Part shown: piece after piece, positions 1,612 through 58,099 of the stretch | Numbering within the stretch: position 1 is the stretch's first letter | Layout of the letters: every line of letters starts with the position of its first letter | Source of the DNA: Patescibacteria group bacterium | Lineage (GTDB): Bacteria; Patescibacteriota; Minisyncoccia; 2-02-FULL-40-12 | Direction of reading: 5' to 3' | Length of the DNA: 64,000 nucleotides | Assembly (NCBI GenBank): GCA_038063995.1 | Contig: JBBTUA010000007.1 | Coordinates: 5,219-69,218 of the forward strand | Position numbers and translations under genes: made by a program | The notes under the pieces: model-generated | Databases searched by the model: none | What the model saw: the letters and a program-made list of their open reading frames with translations, nothing else | What the model was told of the DNA's origin: nothing

Positions 1612-2172
1612 TAAAAATCTTTTCAATTGCTTCGCGACTCCCAATTTCGCCGCTTGTTTTTTAAGGTAAGTCTTGTCTAATTTTTCGCTAGAAATTTTAA
1701 ATACTGATTCAACATCTTCTATATGTCTTGACGAGCCGCCGCTTTTTTCATACCAAATCAGTTTGTTTAAGATTAAATCTTCGGGAGAAATGAAATATAC
1801 TTTTTGATCACCTACTTTTTTAGCAACTCGTCTTCCAAATTCTGTTTTGGCTGTTTTGTTTCCTTTGGTTATCCAAAAATCAACTTTAAGCCCTGTCTCC
1901 GGGTCAATAAAATTAAATTCTCCTTTTCGTTTTAGAGCCTCTTTGGCCGACTCTTCGTCAATGTAGCCGTATTTAGAAATTTTTCTTAAGGCCTCTACTA
2001 ATGGCTTTACTTTTGGCTCTAAAAGATTGATTACAATATCTATATCAAAAGTTGCCCGAGGTCTGCCCCAAACAGAAACAGCAAAACCACCGGTGATATA
2101 ATAATCAATTTCAAACTCGTCTAAAATTGGCGCGACTTTTAAGAGAAGTTTTTCCGGGTTTATTATTTCCAT
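1609..2172 (-). CDS. nucleotidyltransferase-family protein (minimal NTase fold)
   Basis: 187 aa; GGFAVSVWGRPRATFDIDIV motif typical of minimal nucleotidyltransferases. Confidence 0.55.
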   Translation of the reverse strand: MEIINPEKLLLKVAPILDEFEIDYYITGGFAVSVWGRPRATFDIDIVINLLEPKVKPLVEALRKISKYGYIDEESAKEALKRKGEFNFIDPETGLKVDFWITKGNKTAKTEFGRRVAKKVGDQKVYFISPEDLILNKLIWYEKSGGSSRHIEDVESVFKISSEKLDKTYLKKQAAKLGVAKQLKRFL

Positions 2173-4008: not shown

Positions 4009-4335
4009 ATGTCTAATTTTTTAGCGCAAATCAGCCAGTGGCAGCTTCCGTCTTTGCCGGGCCAGCCTTTAACTTCAATAGGGATTTTAGGTATTTTAAC
4101 TTTTCTGGCTAATTTTTTGATTGCCGCCGGAATAATTTTGGCGATAATCGTGATTGTTTGGAGCGGAGTCATGTATTTGAAATCCGGTTCAAATGAAAAG
4201 GCAGTAGATAAAGCCAAAGGCTGGTTTAAAAACGGGATAATCGGTGCGTTCATAATTCTGGCTGTTGGCGTGATAATTCTGACGCTTTATAATATAATAG
4301 TAACCAGGACATTCTTTGGTCCATTTGGACCTTAG
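4009..4335 (+). CDS. pilin-like small membrane protein, paralog 4
   Basis: SGVMYLKSGSNEKAVDKAKGWFKNGIIGAFIILAVGVIILTLYNIIV. Confidence 0.5.
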   Translation: MSNFLAQISQWQLPSLPGQPLTSIGILGILTFLANFLIAAGIILAIIVIVWSGVMYLKSGSNEKAVDKAKGWFKNGIIGAFIILAVGVIILTLYNIIVTRTFFGPFGP

Positions 4336-4370
4336 TTTTAGGTCGATTATTAAATAAATTAAATAAAAAA

Positions 4371-4727
4371 ATGATTAAAAAATATTTAATAATTTCAGCG
4401 GCGGCAATGGTATTAGCTTTGCCATTACTAGCTTTAGCCCAATTGCCTGTCCCGACAATTCCGACTGTTCCGGGAACAAGTCTGTCTGAAATAGAAAGTA
4501 TAATCAGGAGAATTGCCCAGTTTTTTATGATCATTGGCGTTATTTTAGCCGTGATCTATATAATTTGGGGCGGAATAAAATGGATGAGTGCCGGAAGCGA
4601 TCCGAAAGCAGCAGATGAAGCTAAAATGAGAATGAGACAGGGTGCTTGGGGAGCATTGATCATTCTTGCCGTCGGACTTATTCTCCAAACTCTTGCCGGA
4701 ATTGTTACAAGAGTATTCTTCCAATAA
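4371..4727 (+). CDS. pilin-like small membrane protein, paralog 5 (with signal peptide)
   Basis: GGIKWMSAGSDPKAADEAKMRMRQGAWGALIILAVGLILQTLAGIV. Confidence 0.5.
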   Translation: MIKKYLIISAAAMVLALPLLALAQLPVPTIPTVPGTSLSEIESIIRRIAQFFMIIGVILAVIYIIWGGIKWMSAGSDPKAADEAKMRMRQGAWGALIILAVGLILQTLAGIVTRVFFQ

Positions 4728-5293
4728 TTATTGAGATTCTCCTTTTAGTTCTTTTGGTTTTGTTTGAAGCCGTATTTTTGTCTTTTGCGGTTTTTGTTTT
4801 GGTTTCCGGTTTTATTTCCCAAGCCAGAGGCGCTCCTTATGTTCCTCTGCCCAAAAAATCGATTAAGGGTATTTTAGCTTTCGCTGATTTAAAAGGGGAT
4901 GGCAGATTTTATGATTTGGGTTGCGGCGACGGCCGGGTTTTGATCGAGGCAGTCAAAGGATTCGGAATTAAAAAGGCAATCGGTTATGAAATTTCTCCCT
5001 GGCCGTATTTCAAAGGGAGATTTTTGGTCCGTTCAAACGGATTGAAAGAAAAAATCACTATTTTAAAGAAGGACTTTTTGGAAGCCGATTTTAAACAGGC
5101 TGATGTCGTGTTTATTTATTTGTACCCGAAAATTGTTCAAAAACTAGTTCCTAAATTCAAAGAAGAGTTGTATTACGGTTCGAAAATAATTTCAGTAAGT
5201 TTCCCGATACAGGAGCCTGAAAATTTCAATCTCCGGTTGATAAAAACCGGGAAAATTGATAAATTTAATACGTTTCTTTATCAGAAAGTATAG
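4646..5293 (+). CDS. class I SAM-dependent methyltransferase with N-terminal TM segment
   Basis: DLGCGDGR motif (SAM motif I); annotated start overlaps upstream gene; true start probably a TTG/ATT near 4730-4760. Confidence 0.6.
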   Translation: MGSIDHSCRRTYSPNSCRNCYKSILPIIIEILLLVLLVLFEAVFLSFAVFVLVSGFISQARGAPYVPLPKKSIKGILAFADLKGDGRFYDLGCGDGRVLIEAVKGFGIKKAIGYEISPWPYFKGRFLVRSNGLKEKITILKKDFLEADFKQADVVFIYLYPKIVQKLVPKFKEELYYGSKIISVSFPIQEPENFNLRLIKTGKIDKFNTFLYQKV

Positions 5294-5376
5294 GCTCCTG
5301 TGGCGGAATTGGCTATACGCGCGTGGCTTAGGACCACGTCCCGAAAGGGGTGCAGGTTCGAGTCCTGCCAGGAGCA
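5294..5376 (+). tRNA. tRNA-Leu (anticodon TAG)
   Basis: 7-bp acceptor GCTCCTG/CAGGAGC, 3-bp D stem, anticodon loop CTTAGGA, long variable arm, T loop TTCGAGT; 83 nt. Confidence 0.8.
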
Positions 5377-5385
5377 TTTAAACAA

Positions 5386-5412
5386 ATAAAAGCCCGCCTA
5401 ATAAGGCGGGCG
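5386..5412 (-). terminator. terminator hairpin serving hsp20 (minus strand)
   Basis: GCCCGCC TAATAA GGCGGGC; on the minus strand it is followed by TTTTATTTGTTT. Confidence 0.5.
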
Positions 5413-5502
5413 TTATATCCGGGCCCCAAGCAGCCCTTCACTACTCGCTTGGTCGTTGGGATGAAGAACATTATTATTTAATTTATTTCTTGATCCCGCG
5501 GA

Positions 5503-5535
5503 CGGCCCCAAGCGAGAAGTGAGGGGCCGATTTTA
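5503..5535 (+). terminator. terminator hairpin after tRNA-Leu
   Basis: GGCCCC..GGGGCC stem followed by GATTTTATTTTG. Confidence 0.4.
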
Positions 5536-5874
5536 TTTTGAAAATTTCGGCAGTGTTATCGTAAGTATTCCGTTTTTCAAAGTCGCTTTTGCTTCGTCTG
5601 GGTTTATTTCTTCGGGTAAAATCACTTTTCTTGAAAATGCTCCCCAGTTCAGTTCTTTATAAAAATAGTTTTTCCCTTTTTCCTCTTCTTCGTCTTGTCT
5701 TACTCCTTTTATTATTACTGAATCGTTTGTTATCGCTATATCGAGGTCTTTTCCTGTGACTCCGGCAATTGCCGATTTTATGACGATTTCATTGCTTCTT
5801 TGGAAAATATCGAGTGTCAGTATTCCAGTTTCTTTTTCTTCCTCCAATTCTTTATCGAGATCCTTCTTCATCAA
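5533..5874 (-). CDS. Hsp20/alpha-crystallin family small heat-shock protein
   Basis: 113 aa; ..GILTITLPK.. C-terminal alpha-crystallin domain pattern. Confidence 0.75.
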   Translation of the reverse strand: MMKKDLDKELEEEKETGILTLDIFQRSNEIVIKSAIAGVTGKDLDIAITNDSVIIKGVRQDEEEEKGKNYFYKELNWGAFSRKVILPEEINPDEAKATLKNGILTITLPKFSK

Positions 5875-5925
5875 TTTGATAGTATAATATCATTTTCCTC
5901 TAATCAATTGCCAAGTCAATACAAA

Positions 5926-6642
5926 TTATGTTGATACACTCTGGATAAGCTGTTTATGCCGCTGTTTTAGCCTGTCGAAAAGTATAAGCAAAGAGACCAT
6001 CATTCCCAAAAGAAGTACGGTATTTCCTGGCAAAGCCGCGCTCGGGTCTATAAAAATTAAATAATTAAAGATTAAATGGAGAAATGAGGCCAAAATTAGT
6101 CCAAAAGCAACAATTTGTTTTTTGAAATGGTAAAAAAACCAGGCAAGACCCAAGAAGTAGCCGACTATTCCCGAAGCAAGGGCATGAAGCAATGTTGCTC
6201 CGGTGAATCTAAGAGCGATGATTCCAAAAGTCGCGGCAAAGCCTTCGGGATAGATTTTGAAAGCGATAAGTATATTTTCCATAGCCGCAAAGCCTAAAGC
6301 CGCGGCAATCATATAGATTATCGAATCGTGGGGTTCGTCAAAATCCGGTTTTGCCACGACCGAATGCCGAACAACCCAGTACTTCATATATTCTTCGATA
6401 AAAGCAGCCAAAGTGAAAAATGCGACGGCGCTGGAAACCACTCCTCTGAAAATGCTCGAAGCCGCGGCTTCGAGCATTACCACGACCGGAGCAATAACTA
6501 TGCCGAATAGAAAAACCTTTACGATAAGATATTTTGGTTCCGGTCTCGAATCTTTTGTGAGAAAAATCAAAAGCCAGACTATGCTTGGCAAGAGGCCGAG
6601 AATAACAAGAAAAACATTTGTGGGTATGTTTATTTGGGCCAT
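5926..6642 (-). CDS. PrsW-family intramembrane metalloprotease (putative)
   Basis: polytopic; EEYMKYW and GFAAMEN motifs; start moved to internal Met (MAQINIPT) to avoid 120-nt overlap with valS. Confidence 0.5.
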   Translation of the reverse strand: MAQINIPTNVFLVILGLLPSIVWLLIFLTKDSRPEPKYLIVKVFLFGIVIAPVVVMLEAAASSIFRGVVSSAVAFFTLAAFIEEYMKYWVVRHSVVAKPDFDEPHDSIIYMIAAALGFAAMENILIAFKIYPEGFAATFGIIALRFTGATLLHALASGIVGYFLGLAWFFYHFKKQIVAFGLILASFLHLIFNYLIFIDPSAALPGNTVLLLGMMVSLLILFDRLKQRHKQLIQSVST

Positions 6643-8771
6643 TGTTCGACTAAAAGCATTTTTTTGTTTTTTATAGGCAGTTTTGACCAGATTTCTTCGG
6701 TTAAAAAAGGCATAAATGGATGGAGAAGTTTTAACTGATTCGCCAGAAGCCACAAAAGAACTTCAGTTTTTTGAATTTTGTCATTTGAATTTTGGATTTT
6801 TTGTTTCGCATCTTCTATATAAATGGAGGCAAAGCGATTCCAGAAAAAGCTGTAAATTTCGCTTACAGCCTGGCTGAACCTGAATTTATTTATATTTTCC
6901 TGTGCAAGCGGAATAAGTCTTTTGAGTTCTTCAATAAATTCTTTATCCATTGTATCAAGTTTTGAAGGCAGTTTTAACTCATAGCCGTCTTCTTTCGCTA
7001 AAGCTTTGGAGGACTCGCCGATTTGTATTAAAACAAATCGGCTCGCGTTCCAGATTTTATTGGCGAATTTTCTGCCGGCATCGATAACGTCTTCGTTGAA
7101 TCTTATATCTTGGATGCCGGTTGTTTGAAAAGCTAAACCAAAACGGAGAGCGTCAGCTCCATATTTTTCGATTAAGACGAGAGGATCAATGCCTGTTCCA
7201 AGACTTTTAGACATTCTTTGGCCTTCTTTGGTCAGAACCGTAGCGTGAATATATACATCTTTGAATGGTGGTTTTCCAGTGAATTCCAAACCTGAAAAAA
7301 TCATTCTTGCTTGCCATAAATAACGGATGCCTCGATCCGAAGTAATGAAATCAGTCGGATAATATTCAGTTAAGTCTTTTGTCTTTTCCGGCCAACCTAA
7401 AACCGCAAACGGCCAAAGGGCAGAAGAGAACCAGGTGTCTAAAACATCTTCTTCGCCTTCAATAGGAATTTTATGTCCCCACCAAATCTGCCTTGAAATA
7501 TTCCAATCATGCATATTATCAAGCCAAGTGATCATATCTTCTTTCCATTTTTCAGGATGAATACGGACAGAACCGGTTGTGATTGCTTTTTTTGCCAATT
7601 CAGCAAGTTCCCTCATTTTTAAAAACCATTGTTTTGAATAGAGAGGTTCAATTATTGTTCCGCATCTTTCACAGTGGCCGATGTTATGGACCAATTCCTC
7701 GATTTTTTCGATCAGCCCCAGCTCATTCAGCTTTTCAATGACTTTTTGGCGGCAATCTTTTGTTGAAAGCCCTTGGCAGAGCAGACCGGCCTTTTCGGTC
7801 ATCTTTCCGTTTTTATCGATTATCTCTAAAACTTCGAGATTGCGGCGCTGGGAAATTTCAAAATCTTCGACTGAATGGGCCGGAGTCACTTTTACCGCGC
7901 CGGTCCCGAAAGAGATATCAATTGATTCGTCGGCGATTATCGGGATTTCCCGATCTTGGATCGGCAGAATTACTTTTTTGCCGATTAGATTTTTATATCT
8001 TTCATCATTGGGATTTACGGCTACTGCAGTGTCGCCAAGCATTGTTTCGGGCCTTGTAGTCGCTACGACTACATATTCTGTTTGCCGGTCCTCCGAAGCT
8101 TTAGCGAAGGAGGACTCTCTCACCAATGGGTATCTTATGAAATATAACTTTCCTTCCGTTTCTTTGTATTCAACCTCTAAATCAGAAATGGCGCTTTGGC
8201 ATCTTGGACACCAATTTATTACTCGATAACCTTGGTATATCCAATCCTTCTTTTTATAATGGTTAAACGCTTCAGAGACCGCTTTCTGGTAGTTTTCGTC
8301 CATTGTAAATCTTAGGCGCGACCAATCAACCGAAAGGCCTAATTTTTTAAACTGTTCTAGAATTTTTCCTCCAGATTTTTCTTTCCACTGCCAGACCCTT
8401 TCCAGGAATTTTTCCCGGCCAAGGTTCTGACGGGTAAGCCCCTCCTTTTTTAATTCTTTTTCAACGACATTCTGGGTGGCAATCCCGGCATGGTCGATTC
8501 CCGGCACCCAAAGCGTTTGATAACCCTGCATCCTTTTCATCCTTATGATTATATCAGCCAAGGTGTTTTCAAGAGCGTGGCCGATATGAAGTTCGCCGGT
8601 AATGTTTGGAGGAGCAATGCAAGAAACAAATTTTCGTGATGTAAACCTATCCTCCTTCGCTGAAGCTACGGAGGACAGTCCTTCTGGACTGAAAAAGCCG
8701 CTTTCTTCCCAGAGCTTATAGATTCGGTCTTCAACTTCATTTGGATTATAAGCTTTTGACAGTTCAGTCAT
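6630..8771 (-). CDS. valS: valine--tRNA ligase
   Basis: PPNITGELHIGHA HIGH region, KMSKS motif; carries two in-frame copies of the cgaag/cttcg repeat (8089-8117, 8648-8674). Confidence 0.85.
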   Translation of the reverse strand: MTELSKAYNPNEVEDRIYKLWEESGFFSPEGLSSVASAKEDRFTSRKFVSCIAPPNITGELHIGHALENTLADIIIRMKRMQGYQTLWVPGIDHAGIATQNVVEKELKKEGLTRQNLGREKFLERVWQWKEKSGGKILEQFKKLGLSVDWSRLRFTMDENYQKAVSEAFNHYKKKDWIYQGYRVINWCPRCQSAISDLEVEYKETEGKLYFIRYPLVRESSFAKASEDRQTEYVVVATTRPETMLGDTAVAVNPNDERYKNLIGKKVILPIQDREIPIIADESIDISFGTGAVKVTPAHSVEDFEISQRRNLEVLEIIDKNGKMTEKAGLLCQGLSTKDCRQKVIEKLNELGLIEKIEELVHNIGHCERCGTIIEPLYSKQWFLKMRELAELAKKAITTGSVRIHPEKWKEDMITWLDNMHDWNISRQIWWGHKIPIEGEEDVLDTWFSSALWPFAVLGWPEKTKDLTEYYPTDFITSDRGIRYLWQARMIFSGLEFTGKPPFKDVYIHATVLTKEGQRMSKSLGTGIDPLVLIEKYGADALRFGLAFQTTGIQDIRFNEDVIDAGRKFANKIWNASRFVLIQIGESSKALAKEDGYELKLPSKLDTMDKEFIEELKRLIPLAQENINKFRFSQAVSEIYSFFWNRFASIYIEDAKQKIQNSNDKIQKTEVLLWLLANQLKLLHPFMPFLTEEIWSKLPIKNKKMLLVEQWPK

Positions 8772-8792
8772 AAATCCATTCTACCTTAAAAT

Positions 8793-9929
8793 TCACCAAC
8801 TTTTAATTTTCAGATTTGGCTCGGCTTTTATTTCTTTCAATTTTTTTGCTCCTTTATTTTTAAATTTGTAGAATCCGGCCAGAGCGATCATCGCTGCATT
8901 GTCGCCGGTATATTGAAAATCCGGCTGGGAGTAGGCGACCCCCATTTTTTTCGCTTCCTTTTCAAGGGTTTTTCTCAAAAGTTTGTTGGCCGAAACTCCT
9001 CCTGAAAGAAAAATTGATTTGGCTTTGAAATTTTTTGCCGCGCTGACCGTTTTTTTAACCAAAACATCTATTACCGCCTGCTGGAATTCGCGGCAGATCT
9101 GATTGATCAGATTTTCGTCCAATTTTATTTTCTTTTCTTCGAATTCTCTCAATTTATAAAGGACCGAGGTCTTAAGTCCGGAAAATGAAAAATTGTAATT
9201 GCCGGAATTGATCATTGGTCTTGGAAATTCAATTTTGATTTTTGATTTTTGATTTTTGATTTTTGCGGCGCGAAGCGACACGACAGGTCCTCCCGGGTAT
9301 CCAAGATTCATCATTTTCGCAACTTTATCAAATGCTTCGCCTGCCGCATCATCCATGGTTTCGCCGATAAGTTTGTATTTTCCGTGATTAGACATCAGTA
9401 CAAGTTGAGTATGTCCGCCTGAAACAATCAGATTTAGGGCCGGAAATATCTTTTTTGAAAATTGTAAATTGGAATTTGAAAATTCTCCAACTGGTTTTAA
9501 CCAGTTGGAGAATATGTGTCCTTCCAAATGATTTACTGGAATAAAAGGTTTATTCCAAAGTTTGGCAATATCTTCGGCAAAGTGTATTCCTTTCCATAAG
9601 GCGATTTCAAGGCCCGGGCCTTGGGTTACGGCAACCAAGTCTATATCTGCCATTTTTGTTTTCGCTTTGACTAGGGCTTTTTTGAAAACCGGCGCCAAAT
9701 TTTTTTCGTGTTCTCTCGCGGCTAAAGAAGGAACAACTCCGCCAAAAGGAGAATGGATTTTTATTTGGGATGAAACAATGTTGCTTAAAACTTTTATTGT
9801 TTCTTGCCCTTCCGAAGCTTTACTGTGTCCCTCCGTAGCCTTTGGCGAAGGAGGACGCGAAGGAGGGTTTTCTTTAAGCACTGCGACTGAAGTCTCGTCG
9901 CAAGATGTTTCGATTCCGAGGATAAACAT
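8793..9929 (-). CDS. tsaD: tRNA N6-adenosine threonylcarbamoyltransferase TsaD
   Basis: MFILGIETSCDETSVAVL N-terminus, Kae1/YgjD fold; low-complexity insert PPSRPPSPKATEGHSKASEGQ encoded by repeat copies (9808-9868). Confidence 0.85.
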   Translation of the reverse strand: MFILGIETSCDETSVAVLKENPPSRPPSPKATEGHSKASEGQETIKVLSNIVSSQIKIHSPFGGVVPSLAAREHEKNLAPVFKKALVKAKTKMADIDLVAVTQGPGLEIALWKGIHFAEDIAKLWNKPFIPVNHLEGHIFSNWLKPVGEFSNSNLQFSKKIFPALNLIVSGGHTQLVLMSNHGKYKLIGETMDDAAGEAFDKVAKMMNLGYPGGPVVSLRAAKIKNQKSKIKIEFPRPMINSGNYNFSFSGLKTSVLYKLREFEEKKIKLDENLINQICREFQQAVIDVLVKKTVSAAKNFKAKSIFLSGGVSANKLLRKTLEKEAKKMGVAYSQPDFQYTGDNAAMIALAGFYKFKNKGAKKLKEIKAEPNLKIKSW

Positions 9930-10024
9930 GGTTTAGATTCTATCATTTTATCTTTAATTATCAACTTTTTAGTATTGAACTCGCGATATTTATTTGTTAG
10001 CATATAATCATTAGTTTATATTAC

Positions 10025-12217: not shown

Positions 12218-12580
12218 TTGCCCATTCGCAATATTCGTGGTATAGTTAAATTAGCTATTTTGAAAGGGGGTGATTTGATGGCAACCGGATTTTACAAAGC
12301 ACAGTTTTTTGTTCCTGATCGCGTGCTTATTGAAGAAGTAGATTTGGTTGTCTGGGTCGTTGAGTACGAGATAGAATACTATTTCAAAAACGGTGCTCTG
12401 TTCGATATTCCTTCAAAAAAAGAGGCTCTCGAACAGAAATACGGATTGCCCGTTTATGTGAAATTGGTTGCGGTTCCAAAAGTCAGAATCGCTCCAGTTT
12501 CTCAAGTTCAGACCCAGGTTCGTCGCCGCCCCTGGCTTGGTTCGATGATCCATCGAATCAGCACTTTCTTTAATTTCTGA
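12218..12580 (+). CDS. hypothetical protein
   Basis: 120-aa ORF upstream of smpB; no motif recognised. Confidence 0.3.
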   Translation: MPIRNIRGIVKLAILKGGDLMATGFYKAQFFVPDRVLIEEVDLVVWVVEYEIEYYFKNGALFDIPSKKEALEQKYGLPVYVKLVAVPKVRIAPVSQVQTQVRRRPWLGSMIHRISTFFNF

Positions 12581-12650: not shown

Positions 12651-13094
12651 ATGACATACGCCGAAAACAGAAAAGCTTGGCATGATTATGAGATCATTGA
12701 AACTTTTGAAGCCGGAATAGTTCTTGAAGGACACGAGGTAAAATCGGTGAAGACCGGAAAAATATCTATTGCAGGCTCGTATATTAAAATTTCAGACGGA
12801 GAGGTTTTTTTAGTTGGTTCAACTATTTCTCCCTACCAACCGAAAAACACGCCCAAAGATTATGATTCCCAGCGAAACAGAAAACTGCTTTTGAACAAAA
12901 AAGAAATAGATGGTTTGATTGGCAAGTCAAAAGAGAAAGGATTGACAGTCGTGCCTTTAAAGGCGTATAATAAGAAAGGTAGAATCAAGATTGAGATAGG
13001 GTTGGCTAAAGCAAGAAAGAAAAGAGATAAAAGAGACGTCATAAAGAAAAAGGAAGAGCAAAGAAAGATCGAAAGAACGCTTAAACAGTATTAA
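12651..13094 (+). CDS. smpB: SsrA-binding protein SmpB
   Basis: NRKAWHDYEIIETFEAGIVLEGHEVKSVK; start set at internal Met MTYAENRKA. Confidence 0.85.
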   Translation: MTYAENRKAWHDYEIIETFEAGIVLEGHEVKSVKTGKISIAGSYIKISDGEVFLVGSTISPYQPKNTPKDYDSQRNRKLLLNKKEIDGLIGKSKEKGLTVVPLKAYNKKGRIKIEIGLAKARKKRDKRDVIKKKEEQRKIERTLKQY

Positions 13095-13123: not shown

Positions 13124-13474
13124 GGGGGTGCAAGTTTCGACGGAACTTTCAAAAGAAAAATTGCTGGTTGTGCATGGCTGTAATCACATAAAAAGTTCAG
13201 CCAACAAATAGGTGCAAACTATAAACCTGCACTTGCTTACGCCTAAAAGCGCGTAGGCCGCTTTATCTGCAATGTTCTCGGTAGCAGAATAGAGCGTCAG
13301 ACACCGAGAGAACAAACAGGAGTTTATGCCTAATAAGCTCTTGAGCACCTTTTATTCAGTTAGGCGCTCGGAGATTTTGTCGGCTTTTGACTCCGGGCTT
13401 AAACAAACCGGCTACATCAGCTAAACATTTTTCTGGCGATTTTCCCGGACGGGGGTCCAATCTCCCCACCTCCA
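13124..13474 (+). ncRNA. ssrA: tmRNA (SsrA)
   Basis: immediately 3' of smpB; tRNA-like ends GGGGGTG/CACCTCC with G3-U70 pair; T arm GGGGGTCCAATCTCCCC; internal tag-peptide frame ending ..ANYKPALAYA-TAA (stop at 13243-13245). Confidence 0.8.
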
Positions 13475-13952
13475 CTTCTACGCTAAAGCTTCGAAGTGCA
13501 CGGCACTGAGAAGGTTTACAAAACTCCAAAATTATTTGGAGTTTTGTTTTTGCGTAGAAGTGCCCTGCGTAGCTTTATGCGAAGCAGGGCTTACCTTATA
13601 ATTCAGTTGTGTATTACATCTATATCCTCCAAAGTAAAAAAGACAAAAGTTTCTATACTGGTTTTACAGAGGACCTAAATAAAAGAATCAAAGACCATAA
13701 CTGGTATACTGCTTCGCTAAAGCTACGCAGTACAAGTGAAGTCAGATACACCAGAAGCAAAGCACCATTTGAGTTAGTCTGGTATTGTGCTTTCAAGAGC
13801 AAAAAGAAAGCTCTTGATTTTGAAAAATACTTGAAACAAGGTTCGGGCTTTGCTTTTGCAAGAAAAAGATTAACCTAAAGCGGCGAGGCGCTCGTGCTGC
13901 GTAGCGAAGCCACTTCGCAGAGCAGCGAGAGGCAAAGCCAATCTCCCCACCT
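13475..13952 (+). mobile_element. small islet integrated at the tmRNA 3' end, bounded by a 15-nt direct repeat
   Basis: CCAATCTCCCCACCT occurs at 13457-13471 (inside tmRNA) and again at 13938-13952; islet carries a GIY-YIG gene and four copies of the cgaag/cttcg hairpin repeat. Confidence 0.5.
13609..13878 (+). CDS. GIY-YIG domain protein (COG2827/YhbQ-like small endonuclease), with an in-frame repeat insertion
   Basis: MYYIYILQSKKDKSFYTGFTEDLNKRIKDHN is a GIY-YIG signature; segment WYTASLKLRSTSE is encoded by a repeat copy at 13708-13729. Confidence 0.65.
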   Translation: MYYIYILQSKKDKSFYTGFTEDLNKRIKDHNWYTASLKLRSTSEVRYTRSKAPFELVWYCAFKSKKKALDFEKYLKQGSGFAFARKRLT

Positions 13953-14020
13953 GATTTCTTACCAAATAAGCGTATAATTCTGCCACCAGAGTTTTCCTCT
14001 CCTACGATGCTTACTCCGTT

Positions 14021-14788
14021 TTAAAAAAATCTGTTAATAAACTCCTCGTAGAACTGAAGTCTGCTAAAATAGCCTATTAAGAAACTAAATACAGAAGAAA
14101 ATTGATTACTGACCAGCAAAAATCCAAGAGCAATTAAGAAAACGCCCGCGATTTTATTTACAGTGTTTATTATTCCACTCCAACGGCTAAAAGCAGTAAA
14201 GGCCTTGCCTATAAGAAGAGCAGTTAATAGAAATGGGATAGCCAAGCCTATAGAAAAAACAATCAGTAAGAAAGTGCCTTGGACTATGGTGGCCGAATTT
14301 GCAGCAAGAAGCAGGATCGAACCCAATAATGGCCCGACGCAAGGCGACCAGCCAAGAGCAAAAAGAGCTCCGATTCCAAATGAATTAACTCTGCTTGCCG
14401 ATTCTAAAAGTTTGGGGACTCTGATTTGCTTTTCGGTATTTAAAAAACCTATTTTAAGCCAGCCCAATAAGAATAATCCGAATAATATAATTAAAACGCC
14501 GCCAATTCTCTGAATTAAAAGGCGGATTACCGCAATTTTCCCTAAAAATGAAAAAGATATTCCAAATAGAACGAAAATCAAGGAGAACCCCAAGACATAA
14601 AAAAGGGCATTAGAAAATATCCGCCACCGATAATTTTTAAGCTTTTCTATATTGTTTAAATCCGCACCTCTGACTCCGGAAATCACTCCTAAAAAAGCCG
14701 GGACGAGCGGCAAGGTGCAGGGCGCAAAAAAGGTGAGTACACCGGCGATAAAGGATGAAATAATTAAGGCTAAACCAAATTCAATCAT
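14021..14788 (-). CDS. ccdA: cytochrome c biogenesis / thiol-disulfide transporter CcdA (DsbD transmembrane-domain family)
   Basis: polytopic; paired Cys in TM (APCTLPLVPAFLG). Confidence 0.7.
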   Translation of the reverse strand: MIEFGLALIISSFIAGVLTFFAPCTLPLVPAFLGVISGVRGADLNNIEKLKNYRWRIFSNALFYVLGFSLIFVLFGISFSFLGKIAVIRLLIQRIGGVLIILFGLFLLGWLKIGFLNTEKQIRVPKLLESASRVNSFGIGALFALGWSPCVGPLLGSILLLAANSATIVQGTFLLIVFSIGLAIPFLLTALLIGKAFTAFSRWSGIINTVNKIAGVFLIALGFLLVSNQFSSVFSFLIGYFSRLQFYEEFINRFF

Positions 14789-40224: not shown

Positions 40225-40312
40225 TTTCGCCGCCTGCGGCGGCGAGAAAGTCCCCCCGCCTGCGTGGCCGAAGCCACTTCGGCGAGGCGAAGGCCCGCGA
40301 AAATTCGGAAAG
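40225..40312. repeat. GC-rich hairpin repeat cluster (cgaagccacttcg family)
   Basis: CGCCGCC tgc GGCGGCG; CCGAAGCCACTTCGG; the same GCGAAGCCACTTCGC core recurs at 13897-13925. Confidence 0.55.
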
Positions 40313-57385: not shown

Positions 57386-57466
57386 TAGCTCTCCTTCGCT
57401 AAAGCTTCGGAGGAGCACTTCTTCGCTAGAAGAAATGCTTGCACTTCGAAGCTCCGAAGGAGCGAA
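57386..57466. repeat. nested inverted-repeat element (cgaag/cttcg family) inserted between rplV and rpsC
   Basis: TCCTTCGCTAAAGCTTCGGAGGAG followed by CACTTCTTCGCT .. AGCGAAGAAGTG inverted repeats. Confidence 0.7.
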
Positions 57467-57469
57467 GAA

Positions 57470-58099
57470 GTGGGACAAAAAACTTCACCAATTTCAATGA
57501 GAATAGGTTTTACCCAGGATTGGCGCTCCCGGTATTTTTCCGAACGCGAAATGATCAAGTACCTTAAAGAGGATGTAAAGATCCGCCAGTTTTTGGAGAA
57601 GAAATTAAGATTTATGAATGTAGATCGGATTGAGATCGAGAGAACCGCCGGCCAGCTGAAAGTCATTATTTTCACCTCGCGGCCCGGTTTGATTATCGGC
57701 CGGGCAGGAAGCGGAAGCGAAGAGCTTAAAAAAGAAATTGACAAGCTTATCAAAAGCTCTGTTCCTGTAAGGATTGAAATTCAGGAATATAGAAATTCTG
57801 AAAGTTCTGCGGCTATTATGGCTGAACAGATTATTGAGAGAATCGAAAAAAGAGTGCCTTTCCGCAGGGTAATAAAACAGGCATTGTCGAAAATAATCTC
57901 TAACCGGGAGGTAAAAGGGGCAAAGATCGAAATTAAAGGCCGTTTGGACGGAGCCGAGATAGCCAGAACCGAGCATTTAGAGCAGGGTTTGATGCCTCTT
58001 CAGAAATTGACCGCTGATATCGATTTTGCTAAAAATACTGCTTACACCACCTATGGAACAGTAGGGGTGAAGGTATGGATATACAAAAGGAATATTTAA
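57470..58099 (+). CDS. rpsC: 30S ribosomal protein S3
   Basis: (GTG start) GQKTSPISMRIGF; KH domain. Confidence 0.9.
   Translation: MGQKTSPISMRIGFTQDWRSRYFSEREMIKYLKEDVKIRQFLEKKLRFMNVDRIEIERTAGQLKVIIFTSRPGLIIGRAGSGSEELKKEIDKLIKSSVPVRIEIQEYRNSESSAAIMAEQIIERIEKRVPFRRVIKQALSKIISNREVKGAKIEIKGRLDGAEIARTEHLEQGLMPLQKLTADIDFAKNTAYTTYGTVGVKVWIYKRNI

Follow-up and report, generated by a model that had tools for sequence, protein, structure and literature searches.

Why should the 3′ end of a transfer-messenger RNA (tmRNA) gene recur less than 0.5 kb beyond that gene, with a nuclease gene between the two copies? This question is raised by the ssrA locus in a 64,000-nucleotide (nt) stretch of a Patescibacteria group bacterium genome (assembly GCA_038063995.1, contig JBBTUA010000007.1, positions 5,219 to 69,218 of the forward strand), which we refer to as the window. 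An initial annotation of the window described an islet bounded by a 15-nt direct repeat of the tmRNA 3′ end and holding a GIY-YIG nuclease gene, and took it for the remnant of an integrated element or for a homing-type GIY-YIG insertion. Judged by comparison with related loci, the GIY-YIG gene belongs to a cassette that is systematically tied to tRNA-type 3′ ends across Patescibacteria, which is the main result of interest here, and the gene is not cargo defined by the 15-nt repeat. With moderate confidence, we read the 3′ end of ssrA as a repeatedly used insertion site whose current occupant is a compact, probably mobile cassette. The features that this argument needs are the following.

13124–13475, plus strand: ssrA, the tmRNA gene, with tag peptide ANYKPALAYA* (ARAGORN; Rfam RF00023).
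13457–13471, plus strand: first copy of CCAATCTCCCCACCT, within the working tmRNA gene (exact match).
13473–13498, plus strand: hairpin 1, a palindromic repeat copy of the form CACTTC TACGCTAAAGCTTC GAAGTG (repeat analysis, leader comparison).
13518–13551, plus strand: intrinsic-terminator-like hairpin of 13 bp (13518–13547) and a T run (terminator scan, fold).
13552–13562, plus strand: GCGTAGAAGTG, the complement of 13473–13483 (inverted repeat; covariation across loci).
13562–13590, plus strand: hairpin 2, GCCCTGCGTAGCTTTATGCGAAGCAGGGC, the hairpin 1 motif in inverted orientation (kept in all type-1 cassettes).
13597–13602, plus strand: TATAAT box, 6 nt before the GTG start (read from the sequence).
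13609–13878, plus strand: GIY-YIG nuclease gene, 89 amino acids (aa), GTG start (Pfam PF01541, 6e-17; the sole open reading frame (ORF) with a domain in the interval).
13703–13735, plus strand: in-frame 30-nt insert in that gene (..YTASLKLRSTS..; a repeat copy, core 13709–13730).
13938–13952, plus strand: second copy of CCAATCTCCCCACCT, read as the proximal part of a displaced tmRNA 3′ end (exact match; homologous copies in relatives).
12651–13094, plus strand: smpB, the tmRNA partner gene (Pfam PF01668, 9e-53).

The cassette begins on the tmRNA gene itself: the 5′ arm of hairpin 1 opens with the final C of the acceptor strand and with the discriminator A. Among the loci compared with the window (L numbers), hairpin 1 occupies the same place in L043, L053, L034, L078, L080, L081, L087, L092, L095, L100, L106 and L069. 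It is followed by the 13518–13551 hairpin, presumably the tmRNA terminator. GCGTAGAAGTG closes a long-range helix that encloses hairpin 1 and the terminator and is present in the minimum free energy fold; as a single strand, 13440–13612 folds with -73 kcal/mol (z = -8.15). The GIY-YIG gene starts without a Shine-Dalgarno sequence, and boxes similar to its TATAAT box are found in L043, L053 and L034. A promoter scan called no full -35/-10 promoter at the TATAAT box, which is possibly a promoter for a leaderless mRNA. The interval between the two 15-nt copies does hold several hairpin repeats, as first noticed, namely repeat copies at 13475–13496 and 13565–13587, the terminator and a 37-nt palindrome described below.

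The encoded protein retains all conserved GIY-YIG residues (Y5, Y16, G18, R26, H30, N31 and E72, invariant in the alignment). Its gene had been described as interrupted in frame by a repeat copy, and we found this to be so: a 10-aa insert coincides with the 22-nt palindromic repeat CTGCTTCGCTAAAGCTACGCAG (13709–13730), is common to P0002 and P0003, and is absent from the 79-aa homologues, 79 aa being the length of most homologues. Matches in the PDB were 1zg2 (UPF0213 protein BH0048; 1e-9), 1ywl (0.03) and, weakly, SLX1 (0.03–0.9), and by these similarities the protein is a minimal stand-alone domain of the Slx1/UPF0213 type. Bacterial Slx1-like proteins have been described as minimal stand-alone domains with no assigned role (Dunin-Horkawicz et al., PMC1564403). 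The DNA-binding domain of classical GIY-YIG homing endonucleases was not found in these proteins of 79–89 aa, which consist of the nuclease domain alone, and the NCBIfam grpIintron_endo model scored 16 bits against a cut-off of 56. Because it lacks a separate DNA-binding domain, the protein is not a classical homing endonuclease, and the homing-type insertion proposed at first is not supported in the form then given.

We looked up eight homologues of the window gene, the sole criterion being location on long contigs. All eight lie downstream of, and on the same strand as, a tRNA-type gene: P0003, P0031, P0104, P0006 and P0030 sit behind tmRNA, P0117 behind tRNA-Ala(TGC), P0101 behind tRNA-Ala(GGC) and P0112 behind tRNA-Leu(CAA). 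The P0104 gene (L087) follows the tmRNA gene and not smpB, since smpB is on the opposite strand there. The distance from tRNA end to start codon is 123–182 nt, with the exception of L092, which has a tandem duplication of the leader and a distance of 354 nt. All eight share this leader, which consists of a hairpin 1 abutting the tRNA-like 3′ end, a terminator, an inverted hairpin 2 and the start codon. Hairpin 1 starts throughout on the final acceptor base and the discriminator, except at tRNA-Leu, where the start is 2 nt further on; beyond a spacer lies a segment that is the complement of its 5′ arm, and hairpin 2 (GTCCTkCGwAGC...GCGAAGmAGGAC) ends 5–30 nt ahead of the start codon. The three mutually complementary leader segments covary across loci, pairing as CACTTC/GAAGTG in the window, L043 and L095, as CACTGC/GCAGTG at most loci, as CATTGC/GCAATG in L100 and as CACTGCTCC/GGAGCAGTG in L087.

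The same association was seen in an unbiased set of loci seeded with SmpB, all from Parcubacteria-type Patescibacteria metagenome-assembled genomes, where 10 of 12 GIY-YIG matches lie within ~500 nt of tmRNA. The other tRNA genes of the window have plain trailers with no such hairpins. Between genomes, the GIY-YIG ORF shows 87–90% nt identity where smpB shows 74% and tmRNA 81%. In our search of the literature on GIY-YIG proteins with tmRNA, tRNA or the candidate phyla radiation (CPR), no report described a cassette of hairpins and a GIY-YIG gene at the 3′ ends of tRNA or tmRNA genes.

GIY-YIG genes of other subfamilies lie between smpB and tmRNA or just upstream of smpB (L025, 4438–4698; L042, 4447–4698; L043, 2633–2710; L034, 3662–3892, minus strand); several GIY-YIG lineages thus cluster around the ssrA locus, not just downstream of it. 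The leader is tandemly amplified in L017 (2163–2386; units of about 40 nt, GGTTCAAGCTCCGCTCAGCGGAGCACC...) and in L092 (2147–2500; a unit of roughly 86 nt that includes hairpin 2), with N runs masking part of both.

We then turn to the repeat itself. A covariance model had been proposed as a check on the tmRNA boundaries, and Rfam RF00023 matches 13124–13477 with 94.4 bits (gathering score 47). The gene starts 30 nt 3′ of smpB, and both this position and the tag ending in PALAYA agree with the initial annotation, as does the start at 13124; the 3′ end, placed there at 13474, lies instead at 13475 (ARAGORN) or 13477 (Rfam). Reading the sequence with the alignment places the acceptor 3′ strand at 13467–13473, with the A at 13474 as the discriminator; the gene does not encode CCA. 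The first copy of CCAATCTCCCCACCT spans the T-loop, the 3′ strand of the T-stem and five of the seven acceptor bases, stopping 3 nt short of the discriminator. The window T-loop (13456–13462) is TCCAAT(C), with a C where the U of psi55 is nearly universal, unlike the close relatives, which all have TTCAAT(C). It is because of this extra C that identity with the second copy (GCCAATC) reaches 15 nt.

The two copies are separated by 466 nt; the 480 bp first given for this interval is nearer to the start-to-start distance (481 nt). Even with up to two mismatches allowed, CCAATCTCCCCACCT has two matches in the 64 kb of the window, where 0.04 are expected by chance, and none of 100 shuffles reached two matches. 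Because there are just these two matches, the recurrence at 13938–13952 is not due to chance, as had been argued from the start, and neither is it part of a dispersed repeat, the objection that the initial annotation had raised against its own reading. Homologues of the second copy are found in L008, L010/L068, L070 and L074/L077, and the start of one in L069.

The sequence around the second copy indicates that the 15-mer is not where the altered region ends. Its neighbours are the following.

13880–13937, plus strand: arm A (GCGGCGAGGCG ... AGAGGCAAAG), adjoining the second copy on its left (uninterrupted in L008, L074/L077 and L069).
13891–13927, plus strand: a 37-nt nested palindrome, CTCGTGCTGCGTAGCGAAGCCACTTCGCAGAGCAGCG, that splits arm A (comparison of arm A).
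13953–13997, plus strand: spacer S (GATTTCTTACCAA...TATAATTCTGCCACCAGAGTTTTCC; alignments, conserved with L008 and L069).
13998–14020, plus strand: apparent degenerate older hairpin 1 (TCTCCTACGATGCTTACTCCG; a weak alignment, by homology of position).
14021–14788, minus strand: DsbD/CcdA-type membrane protein gene, the chromosomal flank (Pfam PF02683, 3.5e-18).

Spacer S aligns with L008 and L069 as TATAATTC...ACCAGAGTTTTCC, and is probably an insertion of ~45 nt that split the displaced 3′ end. On its downstream side, L008 and L069 have (C)CAC with a clear hairpin 1, where the window has instead the degenerate TCTCCTACGATGCTTACTCCG, which abuts the 3′ end of the convergent DsbD/CcdA-type gene. 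With this spacer and hairpin remnant beyond it, the 15-mer is not the true outer boundary. Within arm A, CTCGTGCTGCGTAGCGAAGCCACTTCGCAGAGCAGCG looks like a recent insertion of a recently mobile nested palindrome, since L069 (minus strand, about 1–30), L008 and L074 have an orthologous arm A without it (the empty site). The CTCGTGCTGCGTAGCGAAGCCACTTCGCAGAGCAGCG element also occurs within hairpin 2 of L078 (about 2935–2975). A possible end of a type-2 GIY-YIG gene at 13866–13880 (AAAAAGATT..CTAAA, common with L008) was too weak and was not used. No Rfam family other than tmRNA rose above noise in the islet, and searches for PADLOC anti-phage defence families gave noise-level matches only.

Comparison of the ssrA-downstream region with relatives, which had been proposed as a check, showed that the site is variable in the nearest clade (SmpB 74–77% identical, tmRNA tail the same or nearly the same). 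The islet is missing from L009, L071, L072 and L075, whose tails are identical or similar: the tmRNA gene is followed by unrelated sequence (with a terminator in L009, L072 and L075), with neither a GIY-YIG gene nor a second copy within 700 nt, and none of them forms a strain-level pair with the window. L008 has other hairpins, a terminator, a GIY-YIG gene of a different subfamily (35% identity), arm A and a degenerate second copy, GCCAATCTCCATACC. In L010/L068, hairpin 1 is fused to the in-gene repeat and only the 3′ half of a window-type gene is left, followed by a different arm, arm B, and then the second copy (CAATCCCCCCCACCTC). In L070, a terminator and an inverted tail copy are followed, after about 110 nt, by arm B with an exact second copy of 15 nt. 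The order in L074/L077 is terminator, inverted copy, arm A, second copy (extending to CCAC), another terminator and a truncated GIY-YIG gene. L069 carries a 1-kb insertion right after CCAC and then a window-type cassette (ORF 87.5% nt identity), followed by an uninterrupted arm A and the start of a second copy; the cassette, arm A and second copy are 85% identical to those of the window, the tmRNA genes 81%. Arm A and arm B meet the second copy at one and the same nucleotide of the T-loop. Dead or truncated copies of the cassette are present in L010/L068, L034, L053 and L074.

Several observations concern these loci individually. The idea that arm B (ACTTGTAG) is a piece of the conserved motif CTAAnCTTGTAG of tmRNA was rejected, since the host tmRNAs of L080 and L010 do not contain this motif. 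A further motif, TGATATAAAGTGATATAATCTGGCATAG, stands directly after the tmRNA CCAC in L069 (minus strand, 1504–1478), where it heads the ~1-kb insertion, and in L073; it truncates the GIY-YIG gene in L074/L077 and follows the terminator in L009 (about 4885–4912). It may represent a strong promoter or mark where another element ends. The genome of L003 (GCA_964361065.1) has the same arrangement as the window. Logan contigs of ERR3858113-5 (L001, L002, L004, L005 and L007), from the same organism, break within tmRNA (~13241) or at the in-gene palindrome (~13710 in the window) and for that reason give no empty site. Directly 5′ of smpB, the window has an ORF of 100–120 aa with no Pfam match (12218–12580), and a gene of the same size is called at the same place in L001–L003.

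Second copies of tRNA-type tails are not confined to the window. We scanned the 1 kb downstream of 68 distinct scorable tRNA and tmRNA genes (84 calls) for their own last 24 nt. Scores of at least 11 were obtained for L011 (18), L080 (16), the window (15), tRNA-Ile of L055 (15), L074 (12), L022 (11) and L034 (11), with such strong copies found downstream and on the same strand only. Upstream controls reached 11 at most and shuffles mostly 7–10, with a maximum of 12; with controls reaching 11–12, both scores of 11 are borderline. The weak L034 copy starts in the 5′ strand of the T-stem; all the others start within the T-loop and agree with the gene of their own host. In L080, CAATTCCCGCCATCTC matches its own tmRNA tail at 16 of 16 nt, and that tail differs from the one in the window. 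By this comparison, host-matching second copies amount to at least five independent events, lineages or targets.

The cassette and the second copy occur independently of each other. Second copies without an intervening GIY-YIG gene were found in L011, L022, L055, L070 and L074, in a common non-coding design: the gene, a terminator, an inverted tail copy (split by a small hairpin in L022, L055, L070 and L074), 100–190 nt, the direct copy and, often, a second terminator. No ORF, Rfam match or recombinase was found in this non-coding module. It lies behind tmRNA or tRNA-Ile at 4813–5006 in L011, 5372–5668 in L022 and 1630–1800 (minus strand) in L055. Conversely, eight cassette lineages (L043, L078, L081, L087, L092, L095, L100 and L106) have no second tail copy. 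The picture of a repeat-bounded islet with the GIY-YIG gene as its content is thus not upheld, and of the initial proposals the insertion scar is supported, while a decayed integrase island could not be documented and a homing-type insertion is not supported as first worded. We interpret the 15-mer as a scar at ssrA because the duplication is real, relatives without the islet exist, and the L080 copy matches its own host.

Under our favoured reading, the present cassette would span 13473 to about 13937 and comprise hairpin 1, the tmRNA terminator, hairpin 2 and the GIY-YIG gene. The 15-mer at 13938–13952 would be the front part of a former tmRNA tail, from T-loop to acceptor, displaced downstream by a cassette that came in at the T-loop and brought a new tail with it. 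This displaced tail (CCAATCTCCCCACCT^CCAC) would later have been split by the ~45-nt spacer, and the eroded hairpin 1 beyond it would belong to an earlier occupant, making the locus a decayed tandem array, as a short alignment suggests. Entry by recombination at the T-loop with a cassette-borne tail, and reuse of the site, are what we infer from these arrangements. A sign of tandem arrays is also seen in L008 and L069, where a further hairpin 1 comes directly after the displaced tail or after its CCAC end. In its patchy presence, dead copies, subfamily replacement (L008) and high ORF identity, the distribution of the cassette looks like that of a selfish element.

As to the catalyst, eukaryotic Slx1 cleaves branched and hairpin DNA. 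The preferred candidate would be the structure-specific GIY-YIG nuclease, breaking or nicking T-arm and hairpin palindromes, with repair from a cassette-bearing copy; a recombinase acting in trans would be the alternative.

A number of points weigh against this reading. Mobility is deduced from deep comparisons only, because no strain-level empty/filled or excised pair was found. Insertion need not duplicate the tail, given the eight cassette lineages that lack a second copy. The second copies of L080 and L010/L070 end 3 nt before the discriminator and lie in similar flanks (ACTTGTAGS ... TCT) around host-matching cores, a pattern that a simple displaced original tail does not predict. A replacement tail must fit the T-stem and acceptor of each host, and jumps between tmRNA, tRNA-Ala and tRNA-Leu are hard to explain because the cassette tail would have to match the host each time. 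No DNA-binding domain is recognisable in the nuclease, which by itself would therefore not be expected to home to a particular sequence. Constraint, as opposed to transfer, could account for the higher conservation of the ORF, and the hairpin remnant at 13998–14020 is weak.

The alternative that survives best, unlikely as we consider it, is a classical island scar: an element with a tyrosine integrase would have entered at the ssrA T-loop and provided a replacement tail, then lost its integrase and cargo, the cassette being an unrelated resident. A regenerated tRNA gene (tDNA) with a direct displaced fragment is the defining signature of such islands, tandem arrays are known, and tmRNA genes are favoured targets (PMC4383910, PMC11915505). 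All duplications start in the T-loop, those of L011, L022 and L074 reach CCAC and their own terminator, and the independent occurrence of duplication and cassette also suits this model. What it lacks is an integrase. Pfam identified only the GIY-YIG gene between the copies, as the initial annotation had stated, with smpB and the convergent DsbD/CcdA-type gene in the flanks, and tblastn with a Patescibacteria tyrosine recombinase query found no integrase in the 64-kb window. The integrase-bearing element with the same att core that had been suggested did not turn up in the window or between the copies of any relative compared, and there is no integrase between or near the copies in the roughly ten second-copy loci. 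An Xer-like tyrosine recombinase does adjoin the L106 cassette, at a locus where no duplicated tmRNA tail was found anywhere on the 13.6-kb contig. The L106 neighbourhood (4315–6979) also holds a D12-class methyltransferase and an EcoRV-like endonuclease, followed by rpsO; recombinase, methyltransferase and endonuclease genes are all on the opposite strand. The intervals, moreover, are only 140–480 nt and share a common design, which independent decay of islands is unlikely to yield five times, and the second copy lies at most about 25 nt from the GIY-YIG stop codon in the window (minus the 37-nt insert), L008, L010 and L080.

Somewhat less probable still, in our judgement, is that no mobile element was involved. 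The tail would then have been copied by an error of replication or recombination (template switching, unequal crossing-over, or tandem duplication with decay), and the GIY-YIG gene would be vertically inherited and kept beside tRNA-type genes for co-expression or for RNA or DNA processing. Extension of a palindrome by template switching would give inverted copies and explain why every copy matches its host, and inverted tail copies do lie just across the terminator in L011, L022, L055, L070 and L074. The identity of 85% between the cassette regions of the window and L069, against 81% for tmRNA, is compatible with vertical descent, and the fusion of a prokaryotic Slx1-like domain to a TrmH tRNA methyltransferase has been taken as a hint of a role with RNA (PMC1564403). 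However, the cassette stands with its non-coding leader behind three kinds of tRNA-type gene, and therefore has moved. Local error also sits poorly with patchy presence, pseudogenes and subfamilies that replace each other at one site, with two unrelated left arms meeting the same T-loop nucleotide, and with a GIY-YIG ORF far more similar between genomes than smpB.

A relic of an intervening sequence, namely a T-loop group I intron or other insert with a GIY-YIG gene, whose old 3′ exon would be the second copy, is very improbable. Non-intron insertions encoding GIY-YIG proteins are known from rRNA genes of CPR bacteria (PMC11270868), but the endonuclease genes reported from tmRNA introns are LAGLIDADG and not GIY-YIG (PMC11915505), and no Rfam intron or ribozyme family matched at E<=5 here or in L011. 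This explanation is largely refuted by the gene upstream of the islet, which is intact: the tmRNA scores highly, is complete and has a tail and a terminator of its own. Chance recurrence of a short 15-mer in a repeat-rich region, or its membership of a dispersed repeat, has next to no probability given the match counts above, the homologous second copies in relatives and the host-matching ones in other lineages.

The palindromic repeat that forms hairpin 1 extends beyond the islet. The window has at least nine copies, against 0–1 in shuffles. Three are in the islet, two of them upstream of the gene and inverted (13475–13496 and 13565–13587) and one within it (13709–13730). Copies outside the islet, of the ctccTTCGCTAAAGCTTCggag type, are as follows.

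8091–8112, 8652–8673, 9831–9853, 40266–40295, 57391–57412 and 57444–57470: further repeat copies.

Two copies lie in frame within a 716-aa aminoacyl-tRNA synthetase ORF (6633–8780, minus strand; peptides SSFAKASE and SSVASAKE), one within a 379-aa ORF (8796–9932, minus strand; PPSPKATEG), and two at the start of, or just upstream of, an rpsC-like ORF near 57470. Among the SmpB-seeded loci, the motif was found nowhere but at hairpin 1 of type-1 cassettes and at two sites of L008, and the flanks of other cassette-bearing genomes contain no dispersed copies. A link between nuclease and palindromes like that of repetitive extragenic palindromic (REP) sequences and REP-associated tyrosine transposases (RAYTs) was borne out in part only, dispersal being limited to this genome.

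Taken further, the data might suggest, as a tentative and rather doubtful generalisation, that Patescibacteria carry a distinct class of integrase-less, tDNA-targeting mini-elements of ~0.4 kb, each with a hairpin leader and an Slx1-like GIY-YIG gene. Their insertion would be precise, at the T-loop or 3′ end of a tRNA or tmRNA gene, where they could provide the tail anew or duplicate it and would leave tandem scars; their nuclease would cut palindromes for its own copying and mobilise related in-frame palindromes, as a GIY-YIG counterpart of REP/RAYT with tDNA targeting added.

tRNA and tmRNA genes are classic landing sites of mobile DNA, for which the known agents are tyrosine integrases and, in casposons, Cas1. 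Our analysis points to a compact and widespread cassette at such sites with only a minimal GIY-YIG nuclease and structured DNA, and to recurrent, host-matching duplications of tRNA and tmRNA tails in a recombinase-free neighbourhood. If the cassette is mobile, it would provide a function for the large, uncharacterised bacterial Slx1/UPF0213 family, a new mode of tDNA targeting, and a handle on the spread of in-frame palindromes in the streamlined genomes of ultra-small bacteria. Island finders that require an integrase would miss these scars, and assemblers break at them.

Of the known systems, tDNA genomic islands as catalogued by Islander (PMC4383910) share with the window an intact ssrA with a direct displaced fragment starting in the T-loop, serial use of the site as a tandem array, and unoccupied sites in relatives. 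They differ in that the window has no integrase and its 0.47-kb interval holds one 89-aa gene; similar mini-inserts of 140–480 nt recur without a recombinase, and the fragment is split and incomplete. As an Islander displaced fragment, it matches at 15 of 15 nt, up to 3 nt before the discriminator; what is missing may lie past the 45-nt spacer. Casposons insert by the T-psi-C palindrome at a tRNA 3′ end with a host-copied direct duplication of ~15 bp and no tyrosine integrase (PMC5137440), and the host-matching direct duplication of the window at a tRNA-type 3′ end is of the same size. However, their duplication overlaps the tRNA by only 5 bp (PMC5137440), unlike that of the window, whose 466 nt and single ORF include no Cas1, polymerase or casposon-type terminal inverted repeats. 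For group I introns of tmRNA the T-loop is likewise the point of invasion (PMC11915505), whereas the window tmRNA is uninterrupted and shows no intron fold.

Other parallels concern the nuclease gene and its palindromes. GIY-YIG genes are among those predicted as donations from Patescibacteria to other bacteria. The Seg family of phage T4 (e.g. SegB, in the tRNA gene cluster) consists of free-standing phage GIY-YIG homing endonuclease genes; like these, the window gene is a small, selfish-looking GIY-YIG gene beside a conserved RNA gene, with patchy occurrence, pseudogenes and subfamily turnover. Unlike them, it has a catalytic domain of ~80 aa only, with no NUMOD or helix-turn-helix, resides in a cellular host, and travels with a hairpin leader. 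The UPF0213/Slx1 proteins (1zg2, 1ywl) have the same stand-alone minimal domain with its conserved Tyr/Tyr-Gly/Arg/His-Asn/Glu pattern; what sets the window gene apart from the family as described is its tie to tRNA-type 3′ ends and nested palindromes. The downstream repeats of E. coli tyrT, reportedly described by Egan and Landy in 1978, carry the last bases of tRNA-Tyr, and thus also combine copies of a tRNA gene 3′ end with a tiny ORF, but they are tandem 178-bp units formed by unequal recombination, without a nuclease gene, a hairpin leader or recurrence across lineages. REP sequences have their RAYT (HUH Y1) transposases, and in partial likeness the window gene has two inverted copies of a short palindrome upstream and one inside it, with six further copies dispersed in the window; the enzyme is GIY-YIG and not an HUH Y1 transposase, and dispersal is seen in this genome only. 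Finally, Rickettsia palindromic elements (RPE) are palindromic repeats inserted in frame in genes that stay open, as are the inserts in the GIY-YIG gene, the 716-aa aminoacyl-tRNA synthetase ORF (twice) and the 379-aa ORF; those of the window are of another sequence family, in another phylum, and have a candidate associated nuclease gene.

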